DNA of 52,423 bases. It comes from a virus (lineage: Duplodnaviria; Caudoviricetes). Under the pieces are notes generated by a model. It worked only from the letters and a program-made list of their open reading frames with translations, was not told the origin of the DNA and made no database searches. The DNA lies in IMG/VR virus record IMGVR_UViG_3300020045_010931, positions 1 to 52,423 of that record; one strand, written 5' to 3'. Made by a program: the position numbers and the translations under genes. Each line of letters starts with the position of its first letter. The first letter of the stretch is position 1. Below, piece by piece: positions 15,502-52,422 of this stretch.

Positions 15502-15524
15502 TTTCTTATGTAACCGTAATGTAA

Positions 15525-18343: not shown

Positions 18344-18376
18344 CTAATCTGCTCACTTTTGAGCGCTTTTGTGCTG

Positions 18377-19011: not shown

Positions 19012-19026
19012 GTTTGTCTACTTTTA

Positions 19027-19094: not shown

Positions 19095-19098
19095 CAAT

Positions 19099-19593: not shown

Positions 19594-19751
19594 TAGTGCT
19601 GGTCCTCCATTACCTCCCGGATATGTTCGGCCCTGGCCCTGGTATCCTCGCTAATTTGATTTAATACGCTTAATTGGTCCTCCATAGATAGGTCGGCGGT
19701 TTCGACCTCTAAAAACACCGTAATGTTTCCGACCGCTGTCTGTACGTCCAT
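19593..19751 (-). CDS. Small hypothetical protein (52 aa, not in the ORF track)
   Basis: MDVQTAVGNITVF...EDQH*; A-rich leader and TAATG coupling. Confidence 0.6.
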   Translation of the reverse strand: MDVQTAVGNITVFLEVETADLSMEDQLSVLNQISEDTRARAEHIREVMEDQH

Positions 19752-19844
19752 TTTTTTGATATATAATTAGTGAATTATTTTAGATCCATTTAAACCGGAA
19801 ACATCAAAGCTGGGCGGGTCCACAATTTCGGTAATACGGCTAAT

Positions 19845-20504
19845 TCACCAGCCCATAAGGGTACGGGAGCGCGTTATCTCGTTAACGTAATTTTCGGCTC
19901 CTGCACGCTCCAGGCGGCCGACCTCTGCCATAAACAGCGCTCCAGCTTTGGCCAGCTGTTTGATATTGCCAGCTTTGGTGCCTTTGGTAGGTTTCCACCA
20001 AATAGCCGCCCAGGGCCAAAACGGCGGTATTTCCACGTCGCCCGGTCGGTCGTAATTTTGTAAATACCCCTCCCCAGCTTTATATAATTGCTCCTCTATA
20101 TACTCGTCGTCCATAGCCTCGGTAATCTTCAACACATTAACTACCCGGTTACGTTCGGCCTGTACATACTTAAACCCGGCCTCCGCTGTATATAGGTCCG
20201 GGTGTCTCGGTAACATTACCAGGCGTTTGCGCTCCTCCTCGCTACAAATACAGGCGCTCCCGTCGTTGGGTTGCCAGCTGGCGGCGTGGTCGATAAGTTG
20301 CTGGGCTATACCCATGTAAAAATTACGTATATCCTCCCCCATCATGTGGAAAAATGTAAGGGCGCCCGCCTGGCCGTGCTGTCTGGCCAATTTTTCGGCC
20401 AGGTTTTGCAAATGTGGCGTACCCTCAAATAAAGCCTCTGCCAGCTGGCTAATAGTCAGCTTTGCGTTAGGGTCCTTAACCTTTAAAACCGTGTGGTTAT
20501 TCAT
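19845..20504 (-). CDS. Conserved phage protein (AER...DDE...WPW...WWKP...LAKAGAL..AE..RL family)
   Basis: Recognisable widespread phage domain of unknown function in the C-terminal half. Confidence 0.7.
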   Translation of the reverse strand: MNNHTVLKVKDPNAKLTISQLAEALFEGTPHLQNLAEKLARQHGQAGALTFFHMMGEDIRNFYMGIAQQLIDHAASWQPNDGSACICSEEERKRLVMLPRHPDLYTAEAGFKYVQAERNRVVNVLKITEAMDDEYIEEQLYKAGEGYLQNYDRPGDVEIPPFWPWAAIWWKPTKGTKAGNIKQLAKAGALFMAEVGRLERAGAENYVNEITRSRTLMGW

Positions 20505-20782
20505 TACTTTATGATTTTGATTTGTTTGATAGATTTTATTGCTTTTGTATCTCTAAAACGCTCCCCAGGCGTGGGCGCCTCAATTAGCATTATATCCCCG
20601 GAATGTTTGAATTTTACAAACTCGGTATATGTTCGCGGCTCCAGGTAATGTATGTTGTCGGTTAGCTTGTAACCCAGCTGGACGGGCCGGTTGCGCATAA
20701 ATGGCCATAATGCTAAAAATTGGCTCTTTGTCATTCCCCCAGGTTTGATAAATGGGTATCGTTGCCAGGCGCTGACGGCCAC
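20504..20782 (-). CDS. Hypothetical protein
   Basis: Coupled ORF; start uncertain (ATGA overlap near 20734). Confidence 0.5.
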   Translation of the reverse strand: MAVSAWQRYPFIKPGGMTKSQFLALWPFMRNRPVQLGYKLTDNIHYLEPRTYTEFVKFKHSGDIMLIEAPTPGERFRDTKAIKSIKQIKIIK

Positions 20783-21381
20783 GGTTTCGGCTCTGGCACG
20801 CTCATTAATTCGTTTTTAGGTATTGGTACCGCGTCTGGATTTTCGCGGCGATCTACTATTTTACCCGTCTTGTCAATCCCCCCGTAACCGCTTTTAGTTA
20901 ACTCTATGCCGGCACGTAACAAGGCCAGTCTTTCCGCGTCACCAGCGGCCAGCGGTGGCCCCTCCATTGTAACGCCCCAGGTTTCAACAATATTACCGGC
21001 CAGGTCGTGGCGGCGTTCGTATGTTCTGGTCATATCCCCATCCTTTACCGGGTTAGGCATAGTTACCCAGTCCTCCAGCTTAAACCAAAAATCAAAACTT
21101 CTGGCCGTTGCCTCAATATTGGTGTTATCGTTAATATACGCCTGGTGAAACCCCACGGCTATTGCCTTAACGTCCGCAACGTAAAAAACCGGCTCTATGG
21201 CCGGTAATTCGCTGTCTGGATAAGGGAAAACAACCCCGTTGCTAAATGTAATGGGCGTATCTAACGCTTTTAACTTGATACAAGCATCTTTATAAAGGGC
21301 AACTATACCCTTTTTGCCGTGTTTCATTATTTCCGCCTCCCACTCTGGGCCAAACGGTGTGTAATCCTCGCTATCCTGCAT
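20731..21381 (-). CDS. Hypothetical protein
   Basis: YTPFGPEWEAE and SGYGGIDKTGKIVDRRENPDA modules. Confidence 0.65.
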   Translation of the reverse strand: MQDSEDYTPFGPEWEAEIMKHGKKGIVALYKDACIKLKALDTPITFSNGVVFPYPDSELPAIEPVFYVADVKAIAVGFHQAYINDNTNIEATARSFDFWFKLEDWVTMPNPVKDGDMTRTYERRHDLAGNIVETWGVTMEGPPLAAGDAERLALLRAGIELTKSGYGGIDKTGKIVDRRENPDAVPIPKNELMSVPEPKPWPSAPGNDTHLSNLGE

Positions 21382-34454: not shown

Positions 34455-35351
34455 TTATTGGAAAGGTTCGCAACTTTCTGCGCAACTCTCCTGCTCGTCA
34501 AGGTCGAAATCATAATCTGCATTATCAGTTTTTAAAGACTGGTCAACCGCAATTTTAAAATCCTCTTTAGCCTCCTCCAGTAAATCCTCTATCGTTTCCC
34601 CCTCTCTAAAAAACCGTACAGGCGTCTTATCATGTTGCATCTTTTTGGGCTTTACCTGGGCGTAATCTGTCTGCATCCTGGCAACCCAGGCAATATCCTC
34701 CTCGGTAACTGACTTTGTCTTAATCTGGGTTAATAATTTTCTTTTGCTTTTTTTATAGCATAATTTACAATTACCGTCATAATCCGGTAACTGCAAATCG
34801 AAAATTTGACGTTTCCAGAAAACAGCAACATCTGGTTTTTTAATTTGCCAGTCATAAAGAGGGTACCATTGGTTTTTATCTTTTTGAGTTTCCGGGTTGC
34901 CTACGCGGGCTTTTTCGTCGTAACGATAACCTATTACCGTGGTATATTTTTTATGATGCCCCCATCCTATTGATTTGGCGTAACTACGTATCGGATTTGT
35001 TTTTAGTTCGCGTGTACAATGTTTAAATTTCTTGTTTGGTATGCCGTACTTTTTAATTACCTCCTCAAAAACGGATCCGTCTCTGGCCGCTGTTTGATAG
35101 TTAACTACTTTGTGCGTTGATGATTTACGGCGGCCGTGGTGTACAACGGCCTCAACCCAGACAATAGGGAAACCAAAATATTGCTCCAGCTGGTGTACAA
35201 ATAATAATGTCTCCTCTTTTTCCCTGCTGGTGTTAGCGAAAATAAATAGAAATTCGTAAGCGTCTTTATACCTGGTCCATAGCATAAAAGCCATAAGGGC
35301 GGACGTACGCCCACCCGAAACCGAAACCAGTAATCTCTGTTTTTTTACCAT
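34455..35351 (-). CDS. PAPS reductase/DndC-like PP-loop protein with Cys clusters
   Basis: SVSGGRTS PP-loop, CTRELK, GYRYDE..R, YPL.DW, NCKLCYKK, C-terminal SCAESC. Confidence 0.85.
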   Translation of the reverse strand: MVKKQRLLVSVSGGRTSALMAFMLWTRYKDAYEFLFIFANTSREKEETLLFVHQLEQYFGFPIVWVEAVVHHGRRKSSTHKVVNYQTAARDGSVFEEVIKKYGIPNKKFKHCTRELKTNPIRSYAKSIGWGHHKKYTTVIGYRYDEKARVGNPETQKDKNQWYPLYDWQIKKPDVAVFWKRQIFDLQLPDYDGNCKLCYKKSKRKLLTQIKTKSVTEEDIAWVARMQTDYAQVKPKKMQHDKTPVRFFREGETIEDLLEEAKEDFKIAVDQSLKTDNADYDFDLDEQESCAESCEPFQ

Positions 35352-35352
35352 A

Positions 35353-35541
35353 TTATTTGCGTAATGATTTTTCAATTTCGCCGGCCTCTATTGTCTCTGT
35401 TATTGAGGTAACGGTATGAAATCCAAATGAAGTAATTTTAAATAGCGTGCCAGCTGGACCCCTATAATATTTATCGCTTATTTTGGTCATTTTGTTGATG
35501 TTGGCCAACTGCTCCAGCAATGTTTTAATTTCAGTTTTCAT
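35353..35541 (-). CDS. Hypothetical protein
   Basis: Small ORF in the operon. Confidence 0.5.
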   Translation of the reverse strand: MKTEIKTLLEQLANINKMTKISDKYYRGPAGTLFKITSFGFHTVTSITETIEAGEIEKSLRK

Positions 35542-35919: not shown

Positions 35920-36624
35920 TTAAATTTGAATGTTTAGCAACGCGGCTGTTTTTGGTCCCACTTCGCCGTCCGGGTTTAGTTCGTTAGTATCCTGGTAAGC
36001 GCGTACGGCCTCAAATGTACCGCGCCCAAACTTACCGTCAACTGCCATTTTATAAAAGCGCAGGGCCTTTAATTTCGTCTGTATTGCCACAACAACCGGC
36101 CCCTCCATTATAGGGGTTTTAAATCGGTAAATAGTTGATACCGGGGGTACGGTTTTAAATGGGGCCGCGCTCTCCTCATATTCTATCCAGGGTACCAAAA
36201 TACCGTAACTCCAGCGGCGGCCGGTAACCACCGATTTTATAAAGCCGGTTTTCCTGCTATGGGCCTCAATCGTCCCGCCCTTTCCATCACATACCACCGC
36301 GTGGCCTACCTGGCCGTCAGCGGCAACGCGCAACAATATTGCGCCTGGCGTTCTGTTAGCCTGGTCCACCGTTATGATTATGCCCATTTTACGGGCGTCG
36401 CGGTCCAGAAACCCGGTATAGGCGTCGGCGGTTGACGGCTTACCGTTGTTGTTAGCGCAACCGTATAGTTTGCCGGTCAGCTGGTATATACCCCAGGCAA
36501 TCGTCTCCGCGCAATCCCAGGGTCCGCGCCAGTTAGGATTATCTTTAGGGACCAGGGCGCCCAGTAAATAAACTTCGCCGACGTGTGGCGTTAAAATGTT
36601 GTACAGATCAATACCTTTTTTCAT
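35920..36624 (-). CDS. Endolysin, NlpC/P60-type peptidase with C-terminal peptidoglycan-binding domain
   Basis: WDCAE catalytic Cys, GHAV His, IEAH; VDGKFGRGTFEAVRAYQ...DGEVGPKT PG-binding motif. Confidence 0.85.
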   Translation of the reverse strand: MKKGIDLYNILTPHVGEVYLLGALVPKDNPNWRGPWDCAETIAWGIYQLTGKLYGCANNNGKPSTADAYTGFLDRDARKMGIIITVDQANRTPGAILLRVAADGQVGHAVVCDGKGGTIEAHSRKTGFIKSVVTGRRWSYGILVPWIEYEESAAPFKTVPPVSTIYRFKTPIMEGPVVVAIQTKLKALRFYKMAVDGKFGRGTFEAVRAYQDTNELNPDGEVGPKTAALLNIQI

Positions 36625-36628
36625 GGCT

Positions 36629-37219
36629 CTACTTTTTAAAATATTTGAAATAAATTAATCTACCTAAAAAGAAAACGACCAGGACGGCCGCTATCCCTAT
36701 CACAATCAACCGCCAGCGGTTACGGTCCTCCGTTATGTTATCCAGGTTAGTTTGTGTTTTATCCAGCTGGCTTGTAATCCCCTGTAGCGTTGCCTGGAGC
36801 GCCGCAACCCTGGCCGTGCTTTCCCTGTATATTGGCACCTTTATAGTATCTGGCTTACATCGCACGTATGAGCCGCGTAAATCACTCATTGCCTTTTGCA
36901 GGGTACTTACCTGGGTTTTGTATTTCGCGACCTCCTGGGCGCTGATTTGGCCCCCAGCGGCTATTTTAGACGCGTCAACCTCTAACTGGCCTTTTAAATT
37001 GTTCACCAGCTGGCCCAGGCTATCTATTTCCTGGGTATGGTCGATATTGTTAGACGGCAATACCTCCGCTTTGCCTACGCTATCCCGGACCGGGTAATTA
37101 GTTGCACAAATAGCGGCCAGCTTTCCCGGGTTGTCGCTGTAATACTTTAGCGCGACCATTTCGGGCGTTTTGCACCCGACCGCCGCGGCCAGGGCAACAA
37201 AAATTAATAGTTTTTTCAT
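36629..37219 (-). CDS. Putative unimolecular spanin
   Basis: Lipoprotein signal MKKLLIFVALAAAVG-C, coiled coil, C-terminal TM with a basic tail; lies between holin and endolysin. Confidence 0.7.
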   Translation of the reverse strand: MKKLLIFVALAAAVGCKTPEMVALKYYSDNPGKLAAICATNYPVRDSVGKAEVLPSNNIDHTQEIDSLGQLVNNLKGQLEVDASKIAAGGQISAQEVAKYKTQVSTLQKAMSDLRGSYVRCKPDTIKVPIYRESTARVAALQATLQGITSQLDKTQTNLDNITEDRNRWRLIVIGIAAVLVVFFLGRLIYFKYFKK

Positions 37220-37249
37220 GTTTGAATTTTTGATTAAGTCCAAAAATAG

Positions 37250-37281
37250 AAAAAGCCCGGCAAAAATACCGGGCTTTTTTT
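37250..37281. terminator. Bidirectional intrinsic terminator
   Basis: AAAAAAGCCCGG-loop-CCGGGCTTTTTT. Confidence 0.75.
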
Positions 37282-37282
37282 G

Positions 37283-37651
37283 TTAGGTCAGCTTTACGTC
37301 CCCCTCTATGTGTTGTATTTCGGGCGGGTCGGCCGGCTTAATAGGTTCGGCCGGTGGCGTGTCTGGTGGCGTTGGTACTGGCGGGCCGCCTTTCCAGGCC
37401 ACGTAAAGACTGTAAATATTTTGAAAGGTAATTATCGACGCAAAAAAGGCGGATATTATTAGGAACGCGTACACCAGTTGCATTTTTATTTTTTCGTCGC
37501 TTATCTGTACGACTGCAATGTAAATGGCGGCGCCGGTAAGAAAAAAGGGAGTAAGCCGGCGGTAACTGGCGTGGCCGGTATTATCCTCAAAGGACGGGGA
37601 TAGCCAATTTACAAACGGCAAAAGGCCAATAATTTTAAATATCCAGTACAT
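37283..37651 (-). CDS. Putative holin
   Basis: Two TM helices after an ASYRRL motif; Pro-rich C-terminus; within the lysis cluster. Confidence 0.6.
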   Translation of the reverse strand: MYWIFKIIGLLPFVNWLSPSFEDNTGHASYRRLTPFFLTGAAIYIAVVQISDEKIKMQLVYAFLIISAFFASIITFQNIYSLYVAWKGGPPVPTPPDTPPAEPIKPADPPEIQHIEGDVKLT

Positions 37652-37654
37652 GAT

Positions 37655-37966
37655 TTAAGGCTTTGATTTTAATGATTGCTGGAATTGCATTTGTTGTTTT
37701 AGCAACATAATATCCTGGGTGTTTTGATTTACACGCGTTTCAAAGCTACCTATAAACGCCTTTATGTTGGCGCTTTCGTCCTTTTTATCAGCTTGCAAGG
37801 TGGCTACATTTTCGGCCAGCCTTTCTATTTTATTGCTCATATTTTGCAAGAAAATAACGAGGGTGACGGCATAAATTAAAAATTGAATAACGTCTTTAAC
37901 CGAAAATTTTAGGTTCTCCATTATGGTAGCTGTTCTGGTTTGTTGAGTGTGTGCGTTGTTGCTCAT
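37655..37966 (-). CDS. Single-TM coiled-coil protein (holin/antiholin-like)
   Basis: TM VIQFLIYAVTLVIFL followed by a coiled coil; within the lysis cluster. Confidence 0.5.
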   Translation of the reverse strand: MSNNAHTQQTRTATIMENLKFSVKDVIQFLIYAVTLVIFLQNMSNKIERLAENVATLQADKKDESANIKAFIGSFETRVNQNTQDIMLLKQQMQFQQSLKSKP

Positions 37967-38025
37967 TTCCGTAGGTGTAAAGATATATGAAATATTTAAA
38001 AACAATCCTCAAAAATCAATCCACT

Positions 38026-41149: not shown

Positions 41150-43402
41150 TTATACTTCCGATACGCTTATATCAAATGGGCTTTGTACGCCTGTAAATGG
41201 AATTGTCCCGCCGCTCGACGCGGTATCTCCAAACGACCCATTTGCCGCGCTTATACTGGCGCTAAAATTACCGGTCCCAGACGTTGCACTAACCAAAACC
41301 GTAAAAGTACCGCCCAGTATGGTATCGCTGTCTCCTCCACCACCGGCACCAACACTAAGCACGGCAACTGTACCGCCGCCGCTGGTTTTTATGGTTGCGC
41401 TGGCCACTCCTGGCGCTGATAAAGAAACGAGATCACTCCCGCCGCCATCGTCGAAACAATCCCCGTTTGTGTTGGCATACGCCTGGCCCTCCGTATCAAA
41501 ATCCGGGTCGGTCGCCGCCTGGTTATCCGCGTCGGCCTGGCTAATTGTTGACGTGTACGTTTTAGTAAATGGTACAACCGTCCCCAGTAAAGGCTCCTCG
41601 CAATCATTTTTTGTAAAATCTTCGCTCCTGGTGGCCGTATATTCAGTTTCTGGAGTACAGGCGGCGCCATTGGCCGGGTTGTTTGCGTATGCCTGCCCAT
41701 CCGTGTTATAATCTGGGTCCGTTGCGGCCTTGTTATCTGCATCCGCCTGGCTAACGGTCGAGGTAAATGTTTTGCTAAATGAAACGGTCCCGCCCGTAAA
41801 CCCAGCGCCGCAATTATTCCGGGTAAAATTCTGGGTCCTGGTGGCGCTGAAAGTTGGCAAAGCGTTACAAACCGCTCCGTTGGCCGGGTCGTTAGCAAAT
41901 GCCTGGCCCTGGGTCGTATAGTTAGGGTCCGCGGCCGCCTGGGCCATTGCATCCGCCAGGCTAATTGTTGATGTGTAATTTTTGCTAAAGTTTACAGATG
42001 TGCCGGCATAGCCTGGAGCGCAATTGTTACGCGTAAATGATTGCACCCTATCATAACTATAAACAGCGTTAGGTACGCACGTTGCGTTTGCATCCGCCTG
42101 GGCCTGGCCATCTGCCAAATATTGCGCGTTATCCGCCGCCCTCATATTATCCGCGTCGGCCTGGCTAATTTGAGATACATAGGTTCTGGTAAACGGCGTT
42201 GGCGTGCTGTCATGTTGGCCAGCTGGGCAACTCCCGGTAAATGTCTGGGTACGAACATTTGTAAACGTTGCTATTTGTGAGGCGTTACTAAGTGCATAGG
42301 TACAGTTAAAGTTTTTGGCCTCTATTTTAAACCAGCTGTACCCCATTGCAGGGATTTGATTAACACCACTTTGTAAAGCGCTGTACTCAATATTTGAGGC
42401 AACCAAACTATACGGGCCAGCCTCTACCATTGCGCCGTAAACATTTATCCAGGTATTAGGGTCGGCCGTGCCGGCTATGGTAATAAACCCATCGGCATAT
42501 CCAACGCCATTTAATACCGCCGCTGGCCCTGGGCAACCCTGGGCAACCAGGTTATCACAACACGACCCCAGTATTATTGCAATATCTTGCTGGAATGTAA
42601 TTTTAACCGTCGATTTGCAACCGGGGACGTCAACCTGGCTGTCAACCTTAATGTATTTAAGGTTAGCGGTATTAATTCCGTTTTTTGATACGAGGGTAAC
42701 ATTTTTGTGCATCTGGATAACGAATAAAGCCACCTTTAAAAAATCGGGTACAAACAAATTAATGTAGTACGGGATAACTGTTTTTTGAAATGTCGGTATA
42801 TCGTTATCGTCGCCGTCCTTTGTGGCGTCCTGGCTTAATTCCGGCTCGCTTGCCGTAATCATGGTATCCAGATAAACAACATTTTTAAAAACCTGGTCCT
42901 CATAATAAAAAGGCAAAATATTGCACGGATTAGACCAGGTAAGTTTTAGATAATTAATGTTAATATCCTCAACGTTAAACGCGTCGTTAGGGGGGATAAA
43001 AAACATTTCAGACGTACGATTATTGCCAACTCCACCAAACAGTAAAACCGACTGGTAAAACCCAGTCGGCAAATTTAGTGGAACGTTGGGGCCGGTCGCC
43101 GGCTTAACTGTTAGCGCTGACCCATCGTAATAAAAGTAATCGTTACCCTCCATTGTCCGGGCCTTTATTTTCGTCGCTATGCTGGGCGCCAGGTCAAAGG
43201 TGGCGCCCGTTGTAACGTTTTCAATAATCCATCCCAGTATCGGCCTGGGCGTACGTGGCCGGTACCATTGCCAGGGTAAAAGCGCGTTTTTAGGGCTTAT
43301 CAGCGCCATATCACAATCCGCCTCGCAATTTTCCCTATACCTGTTTTGTTGCTCCTTTTTTTCATACCAGGGGAACGCGCCCGGCGTGCTGTTGTAAATC
43401 AT
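41150..43402 (-). CDS. Tail protein with four DUF5977-like repeats
   Basis: 4 x ~68 aa FTRNNC..G..G..V...YTSTISQADAD..A.....GQA.AN....C. Confidence 0.8.
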   Translation of the reverse strand: MIYNSTPGAFPWYEKKEQQNRYRENCEADCDMALISPKNALLPWQWYRPRTPRPILGWIIENVTTGATFDLAPSIATKIKARTMEGNDYFYYDGSALTVKPATGPNVPLNLPTGFYQSVLLFGGVGNNRTSEMFFIPPNDAFNVEDININYLKLTWSNPCNILPFYYEDQVFKNVVYLDTMITASEPELSQDATKDGDDNDIPTFQKTVIPYYINLFVPDFLKVALFVIQMHKNVTLVSKNGINTANLKYIKVDSQVDVPGCKSTVKITFQQDIAIILGSCCDNLVAQGCPGPAAVLNGVGYADGFITIAGTADPNTWINVYGAMVEAGPYSLVASNIEYSALQSGVNQIPAMGYSWFKIEAKNFNCTYALSNASQIATFTNVRTQTFTGSCPAGQHDSTPTPFTRTYVSQISQADADNMRAADNAQYLADGQAQADANATCVPNAVYSYDRVQSFTRNNCAPGYAGTSVNFSKNYTSTISLADAMAQAAADPNYTTQGQAFANDPANGAVCNALPTFSATRTQNFTRNNCGAGFTGGTVSFSKTFTSTVSQADADNKAATDPDYNTDGQAYANNPANGAACTPETEYTATRSEDFTKNDCEEPLLGTVVPFTKTYTSTISQADADNQAATDPDFDTEGQAYANTNGDCFDDGGGSDLVSLSAPGVASATIKTSGGGTVAVLSVGAGGGGDSDTILGGTFTVLVSATSGTGNFSASISAANGSFGDTASSGGTIPFTGVQSPFDISVSEV

Positions 43403-43409: not shown

Positions 43410-46400
43410 TTATTCTACTGGTACGCTCGTTAGTGAATACTCAATTTTATAGTAACTTATCTGTACGGAATTACAATCTTTATCCAGGACCTCAACGGCA
43501 CCGGTAAATAAAACCATATCAAACCCGGTCAATCCCACAACTTCGTCCGTCTCTGCAATAAAAATCGGGTCTCCATTGCCGGCCTGGTCGGTTTGTTTTC
43601 TATGTATTTGGACCGTCATACCCAGCCCTGTTGTGTCATAAGGCACCGTTTTGCCGCCATCCTGGTAAAAATACAAATGATAGGTCCCCGTCCTGGTAAA
43701 TCCGCCGGTGGATATTGGCGCGGTTGACGGCGGCCCCTCTGGTATCTCAATAGGGCAATCTCTTATTTGTGCTATGTTACTATTTTCGGTATAGACAAAA
43801 TCAATATATACCGGCGGGTTTATTTTGACTTTAACCAGCCCAGTTGTTGTGAATGTGCCGTTAGTAACGTCGTAATCAAAACTATCCATACCCAGGTAAT
43901 TTAATGGCGGGGTATAGGTAAAACTGCCATCTGCATTTATAGCGACCGTACCGCCCTGGTCGGTTGTTTTTGTTTCTGCAATTACCGATAACGACCCTAT
44001 TGTGGTGGTATCATTATCCTTTACTCCAGGTGCCGCAACTGTTAGGGTAATATCTTTGGACGTGGTATAATTATCGGTATTGGCAACCGGGGCGTTAGGG
44101 TCCCTAACGTTAATTATACCGTTGCCCGTTGCTGTTAATCCCTGGTCGTCAATAAGGGTAAACGTAAATAGATCCTGGCCGGTAAAATCATTGTTAGGCG
44201 TGTATGTTAACGCCCCGTCCGGATTAATTGAAATTATCCCGTTTGCCGGTTGCGTGTAACTCTGCAATACAAAACCTATATCGTCCGTGCTATTGGCCAA
44301 TGCTCCCGGCGCCGGCTCATTTAATTGTACATTTTTGAGCGTGCTAAAAATTACGGCCCCGGCCACCGGCGCGGTATTAGTAGGGTTAACATTTATTACG
44401 ACCAGGGCGTTGTTGCTCGGTTCGCTCCAGTCGTCCAAAATCCTATAAACAAGCATATCCTGGCCGTTAAAACCAGGATTAGGCACATATCGTATTTTTT
44501 TGTTTGGCAATACGGTTGCGGTACCACTTGACGGCGGTATAACAATCTCAACCGCGGTAATGGTTGCTCCTGGGTCCGCGTCGCTATCGTTCGCCAGTAC
44601 ATCAATATCAATCGTCTGGCCCTGGTAAATGGTGACAATATCATTACCGGCGACCGGCGGCGTATTGCTTGTTAGATCTGCATCCGCCTGGTATAGTAAT
44701 TCTAACTCTATGGTGTCAGATTTAAACGAAAATTCCGCCTTGTTTATAGTACCGATACCCAGGGCCGTTTTTACCTTTTTATCAGGCTCAAAAGTATCTC
44801 CGCAACAAAGGGGTACAGTTAACTTTACCCCTTTCTTTGTTGGCCGTACCGTAATAAAATCCGTTGGTTGCCCGTTCATATTCCCGCGCTTTAAAGGCCG
44901 GTTATATCGGTGGTAATCCCGGTGTAATTGCGCCCATGCAAACGAATTGTTAAGCACACTACCGCCCAAAATTGGCGCCTCGCTGTTGATGCGATAAACG
45001 CCGGCAACTAATCTGGTGGATACAAAAACAAATCCGTCGTCAGATACGCGGCTACTATCCGGGTCCGGATTGCTTAAACATAGTTGTACGTCGGTTGTAA
45101 CTTTTTCGACCGGGTAATTTTTAACCCCGCTTGCATTTTTGGAGGTAACGCACGCGTCGTTATATACTATCGGCAAACCTGGAAAATCCCCGTAATAATC
45201 GTTTTCCATGAATGTAAACCGCTCCTCCCTGGGTATGCTGGGGTTATCATAACTATACCTACGCATATTTTTAACAAACTCCGCGTATCTCGGTATCGTT
45301 AGGTCAAGCCCGATAACCTGTGTATCAAAGTATTTTACATGCTCAATCCGAAAAACGTTTGCACCCTGGCCAACGTCGTACGTTATCCTCCAGGTAGTAT
45401 TAAACATGGTTATCAGCGTTTTTAAAAGCTGTTCCCAGTTTATTTTTGCAATTGTGGCGTTACCCGAAACCGTCGGCCGCTTAACGTCAGATTTTTGGAA
45501 AACAATTATATTATCAACCTTTGATATTTGGTTTGTAACATAGTTGATGTTTGTAACAACGTCCGGGTTAATCTGGAAAAAATCAGATTTTACAATCATT
45601 CCGCCACAAAAATTACTAACGAAATAACTTAAAATGTCGGCCAGCGGCACCCCGTTATCTATGGCGCTTATCGCTCCGCTACCGGTGCCGGCGCTACTGC
45701 CTATAACCTGGCAACTCATTGTATAATTATTGTAATCGCCCTCTACCGGATAGGTGTATTGACAATTATAAATACTGGCCGGCTTCGCATATTTCTGAAA
45801 AACGCCTACATCGTCCCCAGGCAAACAAAACGGCTCTATTGCAATCCAGTCAGGGCCAGGCGACGCGCCACCGCACGGCACATTTGTAACCTGCCTGGCG
45901 TACATCGTGGTAACATCGCATGTATCTGTAGACGGCTCAACGGCAAATAAACTGGGGCCGTCTCCGCCATCATCTAACGGAGGCGGGGCTGGCGTATATA
46001 TTTGTACGTTATGGTAAGCGGCCCAGCCGTAATCTCCAAAAGTACCGGGACCCTCCCAGGCAAAACCACCACAACCCACGCCGGTCTCCGGGTGGGTTGT
46101 TACATGCTGGGTCAAAAATTCCAGTTCAATATCTGGTGGAATTAACGAAACCGTCCGCCTTATGGCTAATAGATCGAGTACATTTATCTCCTGGCCCTTG
46201 TTATCCTCAAAGCAACTGTAAAGCTGGGTTTCGGATAGCTTTAACTCTATGGTGCAACGGTCCAGGTCAAAATCCCCATCGTTTAAAGCGATACGACCGG
46301 CAAACCACGGCGCCCAGGTCTCTATCCCGTTAGTTACACAACGGCGCTCTACCATTATGGGGATATAATCGCACCGGTATATTGAGCGCTCCAGCTTATA

Positions 46401-46577
46401 CAGTCGCCTAAAAGCATCGCCTACAAATAGTATTTTACTGGGTAACTCCTCTTTGTAGTAACTTTTACCGTCGTCTTGATAACTCCAGGAAAGTTTAAAA
46501 TCAGCCTCCCCTAATGGCTCGACCTTAAAATTACCCAGCCGGTCGGTAATCGTGTATCTATAGTTTTTTTTACTCAT
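43410..46577 (-). CDS. Tail tip/hub protein with three Ig-like (Big_9/tandem-95) repeats
   Basis: Follows the tape measure gene; N.PPVA.ND...VLANDSD...YTP...F.G.D.F.Y repeats at ~43826-44667. Confidence 0.8.
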   Translation of the reverse strand: MSKKNYRYTITDRLGNFKVEPLGEADFKLSWSYQDDGKSYYKEELPSKILFVGDAFRRLYKLERSIYRCDYIPIMVERRCVTNGIETWAPWFAGRIALNDGDFDLDRCTIELKLSETQLYSCFEDNKGQEINVLDLLAIRRTVSLIPPDIELEFLTQHVTTHPETGVGCGGFAWEGPGTFGDYGWAAYHNVQIYTPAPPPLDDGGDGPSLFAVEPSTDTCDVTTMYARQVTNVPCGGASPGPDWIAIEPFCLPGDDVGVFQKYAKPASIYNCQYTYPVEGDYNNYTMSCQVIGSSAGTGSGAISAIDNGVPLADILSYFVSNFCGGMIVKSDFFQINPDVVTNINYVTNQISKVDNIIVFQKSDVKRPTVSGNATIAKINWEQLLKTLITMFNTTWRITYDVGQGANVFRIEHVKYFDTQVIGLDLTIPRYAEFVKNMRRYSYDNPSIPREERFTFMENDYYGDFPGLPIVYNDACVTSKNASGVKNYPVEKVTTDVQLCLSNPDPDSSRVSDDGFVFVSTRLVAGVYRINSEAPILGGSVLNNSFAWAQLHRDYHRYNRPLKRGNMNGQPTDFITVRPTKKGVKLTVPLCCGDTFEPDKKVKTALGIGTINKAEFSFKSDTIELELLYQADADLTSNTPPVAGNDIVTIYQGQTIDIDVLANDSDADPGATITAVEIVIPPSSGTATVLPNKKIRYVPNPGFNGQDMLVYRILDDWSEPSNNALVVINVNPTNTAPVAGAVIFSTLKNVQLNEPAPGALANSTDDIGFVLQSYTQPANGIISINPDGALTYTPNNDFTGQDLFTFTLIDDQGLTATGNGIINVRDPNAPVANTDNYTTSKDITLTVAAPGVKDNDTTTIGSLSVIAETKTTDQGGTVAINADGSFTYTPPLNYLGMDSFDYDVTNGTFTTTGLVKVKINPPVYIDFVYTENSNIAQIRDCPIEIPEGPPSTAPISTGGFTRTGTYHLYFYQDGGKTVPYDTTGLGMTVQIHRKQTDQAGNGDPIFIAETDEVVGLTGFDMVLFTGAVEVLDKDCNSVQISYYKIEYSLTSVPVE

Positions 46578-49500
46578 TACTCGGTTTTTTTATAGGTGGT
46601 TTTTGTTTGGCCGTCCTTAATATAAAAGTTCTTGTTATCTTCCCATTGCATAGGGTCGGACCTTTTGCGGGCCACCAGGTACTCCAGGGCTTCGCGCATA
46701 ACTTTTATATCCTCCGCATTCTCGCTGACGCCATTTAAAGCGATATACGCCACTTTCGCGTCGTCCCTGGCTCTTATCTCGGTAACGCCCTCGTTCTGTA
46801 CTGTAGTGGCCAGCGTTACGCCTGTACCGGCTAAAAACTCCATTAGCTGGTCCTCGGTTAGCTGGCCATTGTTCAATCCGTCTAAAAAGTCGCCGTATTG
46901 GTCGGTAACGGTTTTTCTCATAACGTACTCCCCGCCCTCCAGTTCAATAACACCGCCGCCGCCATCAATAGATCGGTAACGTTGACCCCCGTTGTCGTGG
47001 CTTTTACCGTCGATTAAACCACCCTCTCCAAATTGCACGGCGTTATCATTTACCGCGCTAAATGCGTTCGCTTTTGCTGTAATAAACGCGCCTGTCATTA
47101 AGCCCACGGCCGCAATTGCCAGCGGGATACCCAGGCCGAACGGGATAGCTGAAAATGATTTAAAGATGTTAACGGCCGAAACGATTAACCCCGACGCCTC
47201 CGCGGCGGTATCAATAGCCAGCTGGGCCTTTTGGACCGCCTGGCGTTTCTTGATTAATTCCTGTTGTTGCTTAATCTCCTCCTCTTTCTCCTTTTTCTTT
47301 GCGTCCAGCTGGGCCTGTATGGCGGCCACGTTGTTTGCCAGGCCGTTTGCCTGTAATCCTTTCTCTCTCTCCAGCTGGGCCTCCAGGTCGTCGATTTGGC
47401 TTTCCGTTTCGTCGATAAGGTTTTGCTTTGCCTCAATCTGGCGGTCGTACTGGGCAACAATGGCGTCCGTAATTCCGGAAATACTATCTTTAATCGTATT
47501 AAAGGCTGTTGTAAGCGCCTGTTTTGCATTGTCGTCCAGGTTAGATAAACCGAACAAATCAAAAACATCAAAGGACTGGGTATCTTTTAGCCCGTCCTTT
47601 ATCTGCTTTCGTAAATCTGCTATTAACTTTTTTTGCTGGGCAATAACAAGCTGGCTCTCTTTGGTGCCGTCGTCCACCAGTAACTCCAGCTTTTTCTCTG
47701 CATACTCCAGCTGGATTTTAAGCAATTCAATATTTAGTAACTGTTGTTGCTTTTTGTTTTTCTCGTTGAACTTACCGGATAGCTGTACGCGTATCTGGTC
47801 CAGCTGTTCGTCCTGTTCAACCTCTTTTAGCGCGGCCTCCTGTCTTAACCTTAAAACCTCCCGGTTATATTTCGCCTCGTTGGCTTTTAACAGAGCGTCC
47901 CTTAATTCTATCTCGTCTTTATACTGGGTATTTATCTGGTTTTTTTTCTGCTCAAAACCAGCGGCCAAAACGTTAAGGTCCTTTTGTAGGCCGTTTTTTT
48001 CACTTTGCGCAATCTCAACGTTTGCCGCCAAACGCGCCTCCAGTCGTTTGCGCTGATATTCTTTTTCAAGTGTGGCCAGTTCGGCATTTAGGCCGGCCTG
48101 TATGGCTTTTTGTTCGGCAACGCCCTGCTTTATTATTTTGGAGTATAACGCGTTTTGCCCCCTCAAATCTGAAATTTTGGCGGCCGCAATTTTAGGGTCT
48201 ATCAAACCGGCGCCGGCCTGTTGATTTAACAGGGTTATCTCCGCGTTATTCTGGCGGATAGTTTGCTGGTAATCCCTATTACTCGCTTTGATATTGTCTA
48301 TACGGTCCTTTGCAGAGTTTTTTAATTGTACTATCTCCTTTTTGTTGCCCTCTGCCATACCCTTTAACTGTTCGTCCCGGATATTTTTGATTGACTGGAC
48401 CAGTAACGCACCTAATTTTTTACGCTCGTTATAGTCTGCATTTTCCTGGGCAACCAGGGCCTGGTTAAGGGCAATCTGCTCCGTTATAGTTTGCTGTTTT
48501 TGCGCTATCGCTTTTAGATCTATTTGGGCCATACTGGCAACAATAGCGTCAGAATTTGCCAGGCGCTCCTTACTTATTTTATCCGACTGGGCGTAATACT
48601 CTTTGTCGTCCAGTATTTCGTCGTCGTGCAACTTTGCAAGTTTTTTGGACTCCTCCGTTAGAAACCGGGTATAATTTTGCCTGGTCTGTATTTGCTCCTT
48701 TAGCCCCTTTATTTCTATCTCGGTAATCTCGCTATCCTTTGCGCCCCTTTTGTTTGCATTGGCAATACGTAGGTTTGTTAAGTTGTCGTCAGCTGTTAAC
48801 TGGTCCTTAAACAGGTCCTTTTGATTTTCCAGGGCCGCGTTAAGTTTGGCGGTCGCCTCCTCCGCGTCGCCGCTGGCGCTTGCAAATTGTATTAACGCAA
48901 TAGCGGCTAATGTTATAGCCGCGATAATCAACGTAAAGGGATTTAACAACAAAGCCGCTGTTAATCCAGCGGTTGCCGTGGTTGCCGCCTCGGTGGCCAC
49001 AACCTGGGCCTCGGTGGCGACAATTTGGGCCTCGGTCGCTACAACGTTGGTCTCCGTGGCCACCGTACCCACAACGGTTGCCTCTGTCTGTACGGCCGTG
49101 GCCGCTGTCTCCGCAATTGCCGCCGTGGTGTCGGCCGCTCTCATTCTGCTTAGTAACAATATTCCCAGTGCGCTATCTTTATTTAGAGCATTTGCCAGCG
49201 CCTGGATACCCTGTAAAACAGCCATAGCCCCGGTAACCTTTTGTATGATAACCTGGGCTTTTGCGCTTTCGCCGCCAAACAAAGCAACGGCGCCCTGGGC
49301 CGCCGTAAACGCACCGGCTAAACCTGTTATAGCACCTATGCCAGCATCCAAATATTTAGTACTGGACCCTAAGTTTTTAACCCGGTCACTTACCCCGCTT
49401 ATCTGGTTTGCCAGTTCGCCGGCCGCGTCGCTCAACTCGGTGTACTCCTCGCTGTTTTCTTCGCCATTTATGGCCATTAGCGCCAACTCCTCCCGCATTT

Positions 49501-50392
49501 GCCTCAACTTAGTGGTTAGGCTAACGGTTTTTTCTTCCGCGCCCTCCTGGGCCTCGTCCAGCTTAACAGTAGCCACGCCCATAGCGGCCAGGGCAACATT
49601 GCCGGCGTCAACCGCTTTTTTAAAAAGTTCAAACTTTGGCGTACCTGGGTCCAGCGTCCCCAGCTTTGTTGATAGCGCGGATACCTGGGCGGTCAAAATC
49701 TCCGCGTCGGTCGTTGTTTTTGATATGGTTTCGTCCAGGTTATCAATTTCGGCTTTCGTTAAAAATTGCCCTGGGTCACCAAAAAGCCTATCAAACTCCC
49801 CGGTCAATATCTCCACGGTCGGGGTCGTGTTGGCGACTGCATCGTTTAATTTATTTATAAACTCCTCCGCGGTCTGTATTTGCGTTTGCAGGGTTATAAA
49901 ACTTTGGGTACCCGGCTCCAGGTCGGCCAGGGCTTTTTTTGAGAAATCCAGGACGGCGTTAAACTCCTCGGTGTAAGTGGTCGCTTTCTTAATCTCATTT
50001 TCCAAAAATTCGATTTGCGCACTATCGAAATTTAGCCCTACATCTACGCTGGTGGCCGTCAAACTGCCCAGCCTTTGTTTTATAGCCGCTATCCTGGCCG
50101 TAAACTGTTCGCCAACGCCCTTACCGCTCAACGCGTCCGAAATATCTTTACCGGCCTGTTTTGCCTGTTCGCGCAATACCTGTACGGCTTTAGCGTCGGC
50201 CTGTATGGCGCCGGTCAACTTATCAGCTGAATTTGCGGACGTGACAAACGCCCCCTGCATCTCTTTTAAAGCGCTGGCGGCGTTTTCCCCCAGCTGTGTA
50301 ACGCCGGCGTCCATCTTATTTAACTCCGTAAAAAACGGGTTTGAATTTATGCTAAATGGTACCTCATAGTTACCGGTTCCGTTTGTTGCCAT
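46577..50392 (-). CDS. Tape measure protein
   Basis: ~1271 aa Ala/Gln/Lys-rich helical protein with hydrophobic segments and a FGEGGLIDGKSH..GG...ELEGGEYV C-terminal motif; likely start MATNG. Confidence 0.9.
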   Translation of the reverse strand: MATNGTGNYEVPFSINSNPFFTELNKMDAGVTQLGENAASALKEMQGAFVTSANSADKLTGAIQADAKAVQVLREQAKQAGKDISDALSGKGVGEQFTARIAAIKQRLGSLTATSVDVGLNFDSAQIEFLENEIKKATTYTEEFNAVLDFSKKALADLEPGTQSFITLQTQIQTAEEFINKLNDAVANTTPTVEILTGEFDRLFGDPGQFLTKAEIDNLDETISKTTTDAEILTAQVSALSTKLGTLDPGTPKFELFKKAVDAGNVALAAMGVATVKLDEAQEGAEEKTVSLTTKLRQMREELALMAINGEENSEEYTELSDAAGELANQISGVSDRVKNLGSSTKYLDAGIGAITGLAGAFTAAQGAVALFGGESAKAQVIIQKVTGAMAVLQGIQALANALNKDSALGILLLSRMRAADTTAAIAETAATAVQTEATVVGTVATETNVVATEAQIVATEAQVVATEAATTATAGLTAALLLNPFTLIIAAITLAAIALIQFASASGDAEEATAKLNAALENQKDLFKDQLTADDNLTNLRIANANKRGAKDSEITEIEIKGLKEQIQTRQNYTRFLTEESKKLAKLHDDEILDDKEYYAQSDKISKERLANSDAIVASMAQIDLKAIAQKQQTITEQIALNQALVAQENADYNERKKLGALLVQSIKNIRDEQLKGMAEGNKKEIVQLKNSAKDRIDNIKASNRDYQQTIRQNNAEITLLNQQAGAGLIDPKIAAAKISDLRGQNALYSKIIKQGVAEQKAIQAGLNAELATLEKEYQRKRLEARLAANVEIAQSEKNGLQKDLNVLAAGFEQKKNQINTQYKDEIELRDALLKANEAKYNREVLRLRQEAALKEVEQDEQLDQIRVQLSGKFNEKNKKQQQLLNIELLKIQLEYAEKKLELLVDDGTKESQLVIAQQKKLIADLRKQIKDGLKDTQSFDVFDLFGLSNLDDNAKQALTTAFNTIKDSISGITDAIVAQYDRQIEAKQNLIDETESQIDDLEAQLEREKGLQANGLANNVAAIQAQLDAKKKEKEEEIKQQQELIKKRQAVQKAQLAIDTAAEASGLIVSAVNIFKSFSAIPFGLGIPLAIAAVGLMTGAFITAKANAFSAVNDNAVQFGEGGLIDGKSHDNGGQRYRSIDGGGGVIELEGGEYVMRKTVTDQYGDFLDGLNNGQLTEDQLMEFLAGTGVTLATTVQNEGVTEIRARDDAKVAYIALNGVSENAEDIKVMREALEYLVARKRSDPMQWEDNKNFYIKDGQTKTTYKKTE

Positions 50393-50696
50393 TTTGGTAG
50401 GTTGTTTTTTCTTGTTTAATTTTCTTACGCCATAGGTCAAAAAGCGCCCAAAACTCCATAATGTGTAAACTTTTTATTCTATCATACTCCGCCAGGCTAC
50501 CCTCTGCCATTTTAAATAATAACTCTCTCCAGGTAGCGCGTAAAGCCGCGGTTTGTGCCAGTATGGTTTTACCGGCGGCTTTGTCAGCGTTTGGCCGGCC
50601 TTTTACTTGCCGTTTATTGTCCCCGTAATGGTCTGGGTAACTCTCTGATAAATTCCTAAAAAGCCACTTACTGTAGTGAGCGCCACCTGAAAAAAA
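50370..50696 (-). CDS. -1 frameshift extension of the tail assembly chaperone (gpGT-like)
   Basis: Slippery T TTT TTT at 50690-50696; the -1 frame stays open to TAA at 50370-50372 and encodes ...WRELLFKMAEGSLAEYDRIKSLHIMEFWALFD... Confidence 0.75.
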   Translation of the reverse strand, partial: FFSGGAHYSKWLFRNLSESYPDHYGDNKRQVKGRPNADKAAGKTILAQTAALRATWRELLFKMAEGSLAEYDRIKSLHIMEFWALFDLWRKKIKQEKTTYQNGNKRNR

Positions 50697-51112
50697 TCGT
50701 TCATCGCCAGGCCCTCCGCTTTCCAGTCTGAAATTTTGGTATCAATCATATCCTGGGTAATTATTGCGCGGTTTTCGTCCTTAGTATTCATAAAAAGGGC
50801 GCAAATCTTTAAAATGACCGGCTCCCGTTCCTGGACCTTTACCAGGCCGCGCTTAATGTCGCTTAGTGTTACGGCCGCGTTGGCAAAGTTGATTTTATTT
50901 AGCTGGCTCTCCAGCTTATCCAGCATATCAAACATGGCCTTAAAGGTTACCCCGAACGCCAGTTCTTTCTCTAAAATTTGAAACTCAACGTAGCGCTCTA
51001 CGCTTAAAAATTGCTCCACCGTGTACTCCTTACCGTTGGCCATAAATACCCCGGTATTGAGATCTATACGTTTAACTCCCTGGTTGCTTTGGTTTGTTGT
51101 ATCCATGATCAT
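50603..51112 (-). CDS. Tail assembly chaperone (gpG-like)
   Basis: Upstream of the tape measure gene, with a slippery heptamer near its 3' end. Confidence 0.75.
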   Translation of the reverse strand: MIMDTTNQSNQGVKRIDLNTGVFMANGKEYTVEQFLSVERYVEFQILEKELAFGVTFKAMFDMLDKLESQLNKINFANAAVTLSDIKRGLVKVQEREPVILKICALFMNTKDENRAIITQDMIDTKISDWKAEGLAMNDFFQVALTTVSGFLGIYQRVTQTITGTINGK

Positions 51113-51453
51113 TATTGTTTGTCTAAATGGTTTTTAATTAATTCTGCAAATAGTATAGCGGCGCAAATAGCAAAAAGATGCCATATAAGCGAATAAGTAC
51201 CCCAGGCGTGTATTGATACCCCGGCGATAGAAATATTAAACCTGGTGAACAGATAGAGCCATAGGGCGGCCTGTCCGGCTATGCACTTATGACAACCCCA
51301 GATAGGTTTAAAAAACCAACGCCTTTCCCATCGTTCGCCAAAACGTAACCACCAGTTTAAAATCGGCTCTCTAAATAATATTTCCTTATAAACGACCGCC
51401 GTAACGGCAACGGCCCCAGCTAATGCCAGGGCCTTAAAAAATTCTAATAGCAT
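51112..51453 (-). CDS. Three-TM membrane protein with CxxC (DUF1360-like)
   Basis: KPIWGCHKCIAG at the start of TM2; coupled (TAATG) to the tail chaperone gene. Confidence 0.65.
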   Translation of the reverse strand: MLLEFFKALALAGAVAVTAVVYKEILFREPILNWWLRFGERWERRWFFKPIWGCHKCIAGQAALWLYLFTRFNISIAGVSIHAWGTYSLIWHLFAICAAILFAELIKNHLDKQ

Positions 51454-51459: not shown

Positions 51460-52422
51460 TTAGTTTGGTTTGATTGCGGTAACACAAATTGTAAATGTTG
51501 AGACTGTTAACGATAATACCCCGGTGTTTTTTAATTGAACGGTGCAACCGGTGGCGGTAAAGTTAGTTAATGTTATTTGTAAGCTACTAAGCAATGTTAG
51601 ACCGGCAACTGGTGTGTATGTGGTTTGGTACGTAGCGCTCCCCATACTCTTATCGTATGTAATGGCCACGTTTATAGTTGCCCCGCCCAGAATAACGCCC
51701 ACGCCATTTGCGCAACCGCTGGCAATTGTTAAGCTGGATAACCCGCTGGGGCCGGTTGCGCCAGCGGGTCCGGTTGCGCCAGTATCTCCTTTGGGGCCGG
51801 TTGCGCCGGTGGGTCCAGCCGCGCCAGTTGCCCCAGTAGGCCCCACGTTTCCGTTATCCCCCTTAACCCCTTGCGGCCCGGTGGGTCCAGACGGACCAGC
51901 GGGGCCAGTTAAACCGGTGTCTCCTTTTGGCCCAGCTGGCCCCATTGCTCCAGTATCGCCTTTGGGTCCCTGTATCCCCTGTTGACCTTGCGGACCAGTA
52001 GCGCCATTTGCTCCAGCTGGCCCAGTTTGTCCGGCTGGCCCGGCCTGGCCTATTGCCCCAGTATCTCCTTTTTCTCCCCTTACACCCTGTACACCTTGTG
52101 GCCCTTGCGCCCCGGACGGTCCAGGCGGCCCGGTCGGTCCTGTTTGCCCAGCTGGACCGGTTGCGCCGTCGGCTCCTTTGTCCCCTTTATCGCCTTTCGG
52201 TCCGATTGCGCCGGTTGCTCCCTGGGCGCCGGTCGCCCCAGTTTGCCCGGTTTCTCCAGTTGCTCCAGGCGTCCCTTTTATCCTGGCTTGTTGCGTACCG
52301 TCCGGGTTAGTTATTATTGAGGGGGTCAACCTTACCAGGTTGTTATCAGCTACGCCGTTTTTCCATTGGTAATTAACCACGGTCGCGCCCACTTTGATAC
52401 CTACAACAAAGCCGGCCCTTAA
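51460..52422 (-). CDS. Collagen-like fibre protein (5'-truncated by the window edge)
   Basis: About 59 uninterrupted G-X-Y triplets and a C-terminal beta domain; the frame stays open to the end of the window. Confidence 0.85.
   Translation of the reverse strand, partial: LRAGFVVGIKVGATVVNYQWKNGVADNNLVRLTPSIITNPDGTQQARIKGTPGATGETGQTGATGAQGATGAIGPKGDKGDKGADGATGPAGQTGPTGPPGPSGAQGPQGVQGVRGEKGDTGAIGQAGPAGQTGPAGANGATGPQGQQGIQGPKGDTGAMGPAGPKGDTGLTGPAGPSGPTGPQGVKGDNGNVGPTGATGAAGPTGATGPKGDTGATGPAGATGPSGLSSLTIASGCANGVGVILGGATINVAITYDKSMGSATYQTTYTPVAGLTLLSSLQITLTNFTATGCTVQLKNTGVLSLTVSTFTICVTAIKPN

Follow-up and report, generated by a model that had tools for sequence, protein, structure and literature searches.

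We describe a family of small phage membrane proteins, represented by the product of the gene at 51112..51453 (hereafter X), in which an almost invariant CxxC motif is predicted to face the cytoplasm and whose gene occupies a fixed place among the virion genes. A possible reading of these properties, which we put forward tentatively, is that X is a phage-encoded thiol-disulfide oxidoreductase that would serve conserved cysteine pairs of the virion proteins during assembly in the cytoplasm. An oxidase inverted relative to DsbB and VKOR had been proposed by a sequence-only reading of this DNA; overall, the idea of an oxidase is partly supported by the present analysis. The DNA analysed, called the window below, constitutes an entire virus record (52,423 bases), with all called genes on the minus strand. 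Since the record is circularly permuted, the gene at 150..779 stands just upstream of position 52392 on the coding strand. The features discussed are collected in Table 1.

The open reading frame of X was reproduced; its residues 54-57 read CHKC and stand where TM2 begins, as previously proposed. TM1 and TM3 were found by a Kyte-Doolittle scan. An AlphaFold (AF2) model of the protein (pLDDT 93.8, pTM 0.83) contains helices at residues 2-28, 34-40, 48-53, 55-71 and 89-112. The helix is thus broken exactly at C54, which places the CxxC at a helix N-cap. The loop that precedes the motif is basic and Trp-rich, and the helix that follows it carries, on one face, a conserved polar and aromatic stripe formed by Q61 and W65. 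The asymmetry of basic residues on which the sequence-only reading relied was recovered: residues 23-53 contain seven K/R, to which K56 can be added, against none in the next loop (one if R71 is counted), and the C-terminal tail contains two. Moreover, the K+R content of the TM1-TM2 loop and C-terminal tail exceeds that of the N-terminus and TM2-TM3 loop in 135 of 135 family members. This bias predicts an N-out, C-in arrangement in which the CxxC stands at the cytoplasmic end of TM2, as had been deduced by the positive-inside rule for X itself.

Table 1. Position and description of X, of its neighbours in the window and of two genes in the corresponding slot of cultured phages
Record	Feature	Coordinates	Strand	Description
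Window	X	51112..51453	(-)	113-aa three-helix membrane protein, predicted inner-membrane, N-out/C-in
Window	Codons of CHKC (C54-H-K-C57)	51283..51294	(-)	Residues 54-57 of X, followed by G60-Q61 and W65
Window	Tail assembly chaperone G	50603..51112	(-)	169 aa; adjoins X; 1-nt overlap of its start codon with the stop codon of X (TAATG)
Window	Slippery heptamer T TTT TTT	50690..50696	(-)	Putative -1 frameshift giving GT; -1 frame open over 50741 to 50370, spanning the gap
Window	Tape measure	46577..50440	(-)	1287 aa, no Cys; PHROG tape-measure match 1.4e-18; tblastn matches to tape measures of Bacteroidota phages
Window	Tail terminator homologue	150..779	(-)	209 aa; profile match to 9wwa_h 'terminator protein', E 4.5e-6; upstream neighbour of X in relatives
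Window	Head-to-tail adaptor homologue	1400..2614	(-)	404 aa; profile match to 9wwa_I 'adaptor protein', E 0.0029
Window	Capsid-position protein	2702..3787	(-)	361 aa; candidate capsid protein, named from position only
Window	Collagen-like tail-fibre-type gene	51460..52392	(-)	Pfam Collagen 1.9e-29; PHROG tail-fibre matches
Window	Lysis block	35920..38005		Two-helix 122-aa holin candidate, spanin-like gene, endolysin
AS73P1	Unannotated ORF	42013..42273		86 aa; in the X slot
PD491P1	PD491P1_00011			85 aa, three-helix, CDFC; slot order terminator, X-like gene, chaperone, tape measure

In metagenomic collections, ten close proteins, X itself included, and 136 cluster representatives at E<=1e-3 were obtained. 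An alignment of X with 134 of these representatives was used; a repetitive protein of 536 aa (P0059) and one of 58 aa (P0100) were excluded. Over the 135 aligned sequences mean column identity is about 10%. Against this background, C54 is kept in 134 sequences and C57 in 133, so that the motif is conserved across the homologues. The other well-kept positions are Q61 (132 of 135), G60 (131), W65 (128), P50 (121) and I100 (117), followed by H92 (91). Position 56 is K in 85 sequences and R in 11. The third cysteine of X, C97, is kept in only 55. No named, Pfam-annotated, NCBI-derived or UniRef-derived protein is found among the relatives, and X itself has no match in Pfam or PHROGs, nor by tblastn in 50,697 cultured phage records. 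The X family so far comes from uncultured phages only. No fused or longer form was found at 372-2000 aa, a result of little weight.

The location of X inside a tail gene block is a fixed trait of the virion module, and X behaves as a core gene in the related contigs that cover the site. In a close comparison set of 11 loci on 10 related IMG/VR contigs, genes encoding a 404-aa, a 203-aa and a 209-aa protein precede X. Next after X come the 169-aa gene, then, beyond some 160-235 nt of gap, the tape measure gene and a gene for a 1055-aa protein. Both flanks of X are visible in eight loci, and across the ends in one circular contig; one contig ends at X. A homologue of chaperone G and the tape measure come directly after X in nine of the ten close contigs, the tenth being the one that stops at X. 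The collagen-like gene, directly upstream of X and between it and the terminator, has this position in the window phage only, and no homologue of it was found in the related loci of the ten contigs. In a distant set of 32 further loci, with about 20-35% identity between structural proteins, a homologue of the 169-aa protein is encoded directly 3' of X in 30; of the two exceptions, one locus is cut at X and the other has an unmatched ORF and then the tape measure. A BLAST-detectable homologue of the 209-aa protein precedes X in 21 of the 32. X and the structural genes diverge at similar rates.

As judged from its sequence, the 169-aa gene is a canonical chaperone G with a GT frameshift. The gene at 150..779, by its match to the terminator chain 9wwa_h, encodes a terminator homologue rather than a tube protein. 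A Foldseek search with the adaptor-position protein returned nothing at E<=0.001, and sequence searches of the PDB with the proteins at 2702..3787, 3816..4718 and 6438..8420 returned nothing useful.

This setting invites an explanation centred on the chaperone. X could be a membrane scaffold or anchor, whose CxxC would bind a metal (zinc or an iron-sulfur cluster) between two protomers of a dimer, and whose basic loop would dock G/GT and the tape measure. The translational coupling of X to G through their 1-nt overlap is in line with this proposal, as is the fact that the chaperone homologue adjoins it in 30 of the 32 distant loci and, likewise, in cultured Bacteroidota siphophages. The tape measure does have hydrophobic segments, and two cysteines in each chain would be appropriate for a metal site that bridges protomers. 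We nevertheless regard a scaffold as unlikely. It leaves the paired-cysteine pattern of the virion proteins, described below, unexplained; moreover, the actinophage relative of X precedes the portal gene, away from the chaperone, and the crAss001 relative lies outside the structural block. These positions indicate that the wider superfamily is not tied to G or to the tape measure.

The membrane location of X could also reflect a task unrelated to virion cysteines, such as superinfection exclusion directed against tape-measure-mediated DNA entry, lysis timing in a holin- or antiholin-like manner, or host takeover, with a CxxC that stabilises the protein or binds a ligand. Class I holins are three-helix, N-out/C-in proteins of similar size, and X resembles them in size and layout. 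A precedent for an exclusion protein located within a tail gene block is HK97 gp15, and no function is known for DUF1360, the family to which X is compared below. Several observations make such a role improbable. The phage has a separate block for lysis, with its own holin candidate, spanin-like gene and endolysin, and a holin reading of X was set aside on that account. Accessory genes for exclusion are usually patchy in distribution; X, in contrast, occurs in all related contigs that span the site. No relative was found when 185,579 species genomes were searched with close patterns, which makes a role expressed from a prophage unlikely. Finally, the invariant CxxC-x2-GQ-x3-W signature is suggestive of a chemical rather than a structural site.

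If X acts on cysteines, its substrates would be expected among the virion proteins. The cysteine counts given by the sequence-only reading were reproduced (11 in 1400..2614, 16 in 41150..43402, 17 in 43410..46577 and 6 in 150..779), as was the complete lack of cysteine in the 1287-aa tape measure. The description of the virion as Cys-rich held in part: the proteins listed contain 1.6-2.9% cysteine, but the total, 173 of 16256 residues or 1.06%, is ordinary. What is unusual about the virion cysteines, on comparison of the related sequences, is how conserved they are rather than how many. In ten structural families drawn from the related loci and containing 52 cysteines, mean identity is 0.77 for Cys and 0.50 for Trp, the other residue types ranging from 0.18 to 0.42, and 25 of the 52 cysteines are at least 90% conserved. 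Ten cysteines of the adaptor are kept in 30-36 of 36 relatives, and all four of the capsid-position protein in 33-35 of 35. Both cysteines of a 292-aa protein are present in 29 of 29 relatives, four of a 288-aa protein in 7 of 7, and C324, C333, C344 and C347 of the portal-position protein in 24 of 24. In the terminator, C197 is kept in 29 of 29 relatives and C209 in 27 of 29. Almost no cysteine occurs, in any relative, in the tape measure, the 300-aa protein (3816..4718) or the 203-aa protein, and the chaperone has one.

Where cysteines are lost, they go in pairs: C15 with C57 (6 of 6 cases) and C216 with C218 (2 of 2) in the adaptor, and C72 with C339 (2 of 2) in the capsid-position protein. 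C263/C270 and C345/C348 of the adaptor and C197/C209 of the terminator are further candidate pairs among the conserved cysteines. This paired loss, together with even numbers of cysteines, is compatible with disulfide partners. It should be noted that the CxxC-type spacings, and the C-x8-C-x10-C-x2-C arrangement of the portal-position protein, would fit zinc sites equally.

The relation of X to known phage genes was searched for through DUF1360, a family with which it has several traits in common. Both are small, with three membrane helices, a basic loop after TM1 and a CxxC at the start of TM2, and both DUF1360/phrog_781 genes and X are phage-encoded, often within a virion gene block. They differ after the CxxC, where the X family has x-A-G-Q-x-A-L-W and DUF1360 has (L/I)-(S/G)-x-W, and in an extra Trp-rich helix in the loop of X. 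Comparison of X with PF07098 (DUF1360; gathering score 21 bits) gave nothing at E<=10, none of the 135 family members matched it at E<=1, and the phrog_781 HMM matched neither X nor its 135 relatives. As a positive control, gp7 of mycobacteriophage PG1, with the motif CPWC, scored 41.4 bits (1.5e-10) with PF07098 and 9e-57 with phrog_781. Thus, by HMM thresholds, X does not qualify as a member of DUF1360 or of phrog_781. A profile comparison of the X family with PG1 gp7 likewise gave no alignment.

Other comparisons may point toward a more distant relationship. In a structure search of BFVD with X, the best row was gp97 of crAss001, a transmembrane protein (probability 1.00, TM 0.67). Proteins named DUF1360 accounted for six of the top 50 rows, with probabilities of 0.21-0.99 and E-values of 0.1-3.3. 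A protein-atlas search with X pointed in the same crAss001/DUF1360 direction. In its record, crAss001 gp97 is annotated as DUF1360; searched against Pfam, it gave nothing at E<=1. An hhalign comparison of the X profile with crAss001 gp97 gave a probability of 92.5% over TM1, the Trp-rich loop and the CxxC.

Synteny provides a second link. A small CxxC membrane gene is found in the slot of X in cultured Bacteroidota siphophages, where it is shorter and encodes three helices. The arrangement of PD491P1 (Table 1) is repeated in TCUEAP2, P2559Y, P2559S and BF503P1, and B124-14 has an X-like gene in a slightly different neighbourhood. By tblastn, the PD491P1-type gene is present in 45 cultured Bacteroidota phage records, and relatives of it occur in 390 IMG/VR stretches. 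PD491P1_00011 matches phrog_781 at 8e-6 and PF07098 at 9.6e-5, and the AS73P1 gene matches phrog_781 at 2.7e-4; with PF07098, the PD491P1-type gene reaches 17.8 bits, under the 21-bit threshold. No PDB chain matched the X-like protein of PD491P1. The hhalign comparison of the X-family profile with a seven-sequence alignment of the PD491P1 type is weak (E 0.0016, probability 16%); in it the two CxxC motifs are aligned. The layout with a putative cytoplasmic CxxC is also found, by eye, in PD491P1_00011, crAss001 gp97 and PG1 gp7. Given synteny and architecture on one side, and a weak profile match with no phrog_781 match on the other, X is treated here as a divergent branch of a DUF1360-like superfamily; gene order and architecture support this placement, of which the sequence statistics are no proof.

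Several phages that carry such genes have, or have close relatives with, reported virion disulfides. Chain 9wwa_h is identical to PD491P1_00010 (189/189 residues, E 7e-131), from which PDB entry 9wwa can be assigned to phage PD491P1. The virion of PD491P1 is described as disulfide-networked in one sentence of a citing paper. The adaptor and the terminator of PD491P1 are distantly homologous to those of the window. Among its proteins, the capsid-position protein has four cysteines, the adaptor eight, the terminator one and the X-like protein three, and the 315-aa protein and the tape measure have none. Judged by these counts, the distribution of cysteines in PD491P1 parallels that in the window phage.

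A second lineage is that of the actinophages Jabs, Jeon and PG1. In a 2026 preprint on Jabs, about 1,700 virion disulfides are reported across capsid, connector, tail and tip, and its authors leave open whether these form unaided or with the help of an oxidoreductase, be it from the host or the phage. The major tail protein of Jeon has cysteines at 19, 60, 79 and 131, exactly the bonded residues of the Jabs tail tube, and the hexon-capsid cysteines of Jeon and PG1 correspond to the Jabs residues at constant offsets. A DUF1360 gene with CPWC lies directly upstream of the portal gene in PG1, Jeon and Evaa, and by analogy with these relatives Jabs probably has one too. In a third lineage, inter-subunit disulfides are reported for the gp57 dimer, the tail barrel and the hubs of the crAss001 virion.

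Four actinophages that lack the family have virion proteins poor in cysteine. Nine virion or morphogenesis proteins of Bxb1 contain none in 3240 aa. TM4 (18 cysteines over 4867 aa), Giles (13 over 4441 aa) and Corndog (24 over 5391 aa) reach 0.29-0.45%; the capsid proteins of these last three have 0, 0 and 2 cysteines, respectively. In TM4, the only family match is one of 9.5 bits inside a 458-aa frame. Two phages run counter to the association. The Agrobacterium phage Milano is cited as having a virion disulfide network, yet it has no match to PF07098 or phrog_781, and a scan of its first 50 kb for a membrane ORF with CxxC was also empty. Thus, a catalyst of this kind would not be needed everywhere. 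Disulfides are reportedly also discussed in the T1 structure paper, and T1 has no match to the family. Taken together, related CxxC membrane genes are found in three lineages in which the phage or a close relative has reported disulfides (PD491P1; Jabs, Jeon and PG1; crAss001). The co-occurrence may then be counted as about three independent lineages and is partly post hoc, since some of them were found through the likeness itself.

The comparison with DsbB and VKOR, from which the idea of an oxidase originated, fared unevenly: a predicted cytoplasmic CxxC at a helix start was found as proposed, but likeness in fold or sequence was not. No homology to DsbB or VKOR was found: neither X nor the 135 members matched in Pfam, and the structural comparisons that follow brought up neither of the two. 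A Foldseek search of the PDB with the model of X gave nothing at E<=0.001. In a VIA-align comparison over 48,161 chains, DsbB and VKOR were absent from the best 50 rows, and the best Z, 7.3, was no higher than the background for helical proteins. When PDB sequences were searched with a profile, only chance alcohol dehydrogenase rows came back. The likeness resides in a CxxC placed at the membrane-facing beginning of a transmembrane helix, with conserved polar or aromatic residues one turn in (Q61 and W65 in X). In contrast, DsbB and VKOR have at least four helices, two Cys pairs and a periplasmic or luminal site, whereas in X there are three helices and a single invariant pair, and the site is predicted to be cytoplasmic.

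That one pair can suffice is indicated by MauE. This membrane protein with a single CXC was recently reported to replace DsbB, and a quinone has been proposed as its partner. X resembles MauE in being small, located in the membrane and limited to one Cys motif, and differs from it in the motif itself, CXC in MauE, and in the periplasmic DsbA pathway in which MauE functions. For the formation of virion disulfides in a reducing cytoplasm, the precedent is the virus-encoded E10R-A2.5L-G4L pathway of poxviruses. Sulfhydryl oxidases of poxviruses and of other large DNA viruses share this task with the role proposed for X. They differ from X in being soluble or membrane-associated FAD oxidases assisted by thioredoxin-like carriers, with unrelated sequence and fold.

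The following scheme can be proposed for X. It would be made late, as an inner-membrane protein with its N-terminus out and both its basic, Trp-rich loop and its C-terminus in. Its CxxC, which we infer to be redox-active, would be oxidised at the membrane, where menaquinone or another acceptor might take electrons via the conserved face formed by Q61, W65 and H92. X would then pass disulfides, directly or via a carrier, to Cys pairs of capsid, adaptor, portal, terminator and tail-tip proteins, so that the virion cysteines would be oxidised before lysis. A redox-active CxxC serving virion cysteines is the most economical reading of the invariant N-cap pair, its predicted cytoplasmic face, the Q61/W65 stripe and the location in the virion module. 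Virion disulfides could, for their part, instead arise in air, after lysis or during purification.

The same evidence from conservation, topology and co-occurrence would also accommodate the opposite activity: X could be a reductase, an isomerase or a redox sensor that keeps virion cysteines reduced or correctly paired until release, with spontaneous oxidation outside the cell. The Jabs authors do suggest that the network may form during or after lysis. We consider this quite improbable, as the cytoplasm is already reducing and a dedicated membrane reductase seems redundant. Parabacteroides and Bacteroides, on which PD491P1 and crAss001 were isolated, are anaerobic gut genera, and it is for phages of such hosts that oxidation by oxygen after release would presumably be least available.

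Returning to X as a generator of disulfides, the proposal may be extended to its relatives. X, the PD491P1-type protein, crAss001 gp97 and the actinophage gp7-type proteins might form one DUF1360-like superfamily whose role is to generate structural disulfides at the cytoplasmic side of the host membrane, a generalisation that we offer as a conjecture, plausible but short of probable. The host range of the family leans to Bacteroidota and Actinobacteria.

According to another 2026 paper, no disulfide-forming machinery had been described in phages. The X family provides a concrete, small and conserved candidate for a phage disulfide-bond enzyme, and the wider family is present in phages that can be cultivated, namely PD491P1 and PDS1 (Parabacteroides), crAss001 (Bacteroides) and PG1/Jeon-type phages (M. 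smegmatis). If the role proposed here is wrong, a strictly conserved CxxC membrane protein in virion modules still needs explaining. If it is right, X would be a new membrane disulfide catalyst working toward the cytoplasm and, should the reading hold for the superfamily, this would count as the third or fourth type of membrane disulfide generator, its orientation being inverted relative to DsbB and VKOR. It may also provide a compact tool for producing disulfide-bonded proteins in the bacterial cytoplasm. For the phages themselves, it would explain how virions with hundreds to thousands of disulfides are built inside a reducing cell by phages of Bacteroidota and Actinobacteria, and it would account for the stability of abundant gut phages.

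On sequence grounds, the stretch between the tape measure gene and the gene of the 113-aa CHKC membrane protein encodes a G/GT tail chaperone pair of the textbook kind. Inside the gene of the 169-aa chaperone G, window positions 50696..50690 form a T TTT TTT slippery heptamer, and the -1 frame of this gene is open as far as 50370, so that it covers the 163-nt "gap" ahead of the tape measure. A gap of about 160-235 nt is kept at the equivalent site by the relatives. Within the window, no tail tube gene is found between the terminator gene and the chaperone gene. The collagen-repeat gene that lies between the terminator and the CHKC protein has a counterpart in none of the related contigs examined, and its frame remains open up to the end of the window, at 52422.

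Features of the window and small CxxC membrane genes of deposited phage genomes (L numbers are record handles)
Feature	Genome	Coordinates	Strand	Remarks
Tail terminator homologue, 209 aa	window	150..779	-	homologue of a protein of the cultured Parabacteroides phage PD491P1 (PDB 9wwa)
Head-to-tail adaptor homologue, 404 aa	window	1400..2614	-	homologue of a PD491P1 protein (PDB 9wwa)
Portal-position protein	window	6438..8420	-	four invariant Cys
398-aa protein, GDSL-like lipase/acylhydrolase domain	window	8959..10155	-	Pfam 1.7e-8; head gene region
PAPS-reductase-like gene	window	34455..35375	-	PHROG 5e-44; Pfam PAPS_reduct
Lysis block	window	35920..38005	-	apart from the CHKC protein
Tail-tip proteins	window	41150..43402 and 43410..46577	-	four DUF5977 repeats, Big_9 and cadherin-like domains
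G/GT tail chaperone pair	window	50370..51112	-	slippery heptamer, open -1 frame
Collagen-repeat gene	window	51460..52392	-	tail-fibre-type
Unannotated small CxxC membrane gene	Alistipes phage AS73P1 (L048)	42013..42273
Unannotated small CxxC membrane gene	TCUEAP2 (L135)	2492..2761
Unannotated small CxxC membrane gene	P2559Y (L050)	4992..5237

Cysteines of several virion proteins are conserved. In the portal-position protein, C324, C333, C344 and C347 (C-x8-C-x10-C-x2-C) are invariant in all 24 relatives compared; the four residues could form a zinc site instead of disulfides. The 1055-aa tail-tip protein has 17 cysteines, most of which recur in 7-9 of 9 relatives. In Mycobacterium phage Bxb1 (L145), nine consecutive virion/morphogenesis proteins (8719..20984; 3240 aa) have zero cysteine.

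Enzymes of the PAPS reductase family, of which the window encodes a likely member, use thioredoxin as reductant. The lysis block comprises an endolysin carrying a PG_binding_1 domain, a 122-aa two-helix holin candidate, a 116-aa spanin-like protein and a 204-aa protein in which two segments are hydrophobic.

Finally, several Bacteroidota phage genomes have been deposited without an annotation for the small CxxC membrane gene; for B40-8 and others, too, the annotation under the match to this gene reads "none".
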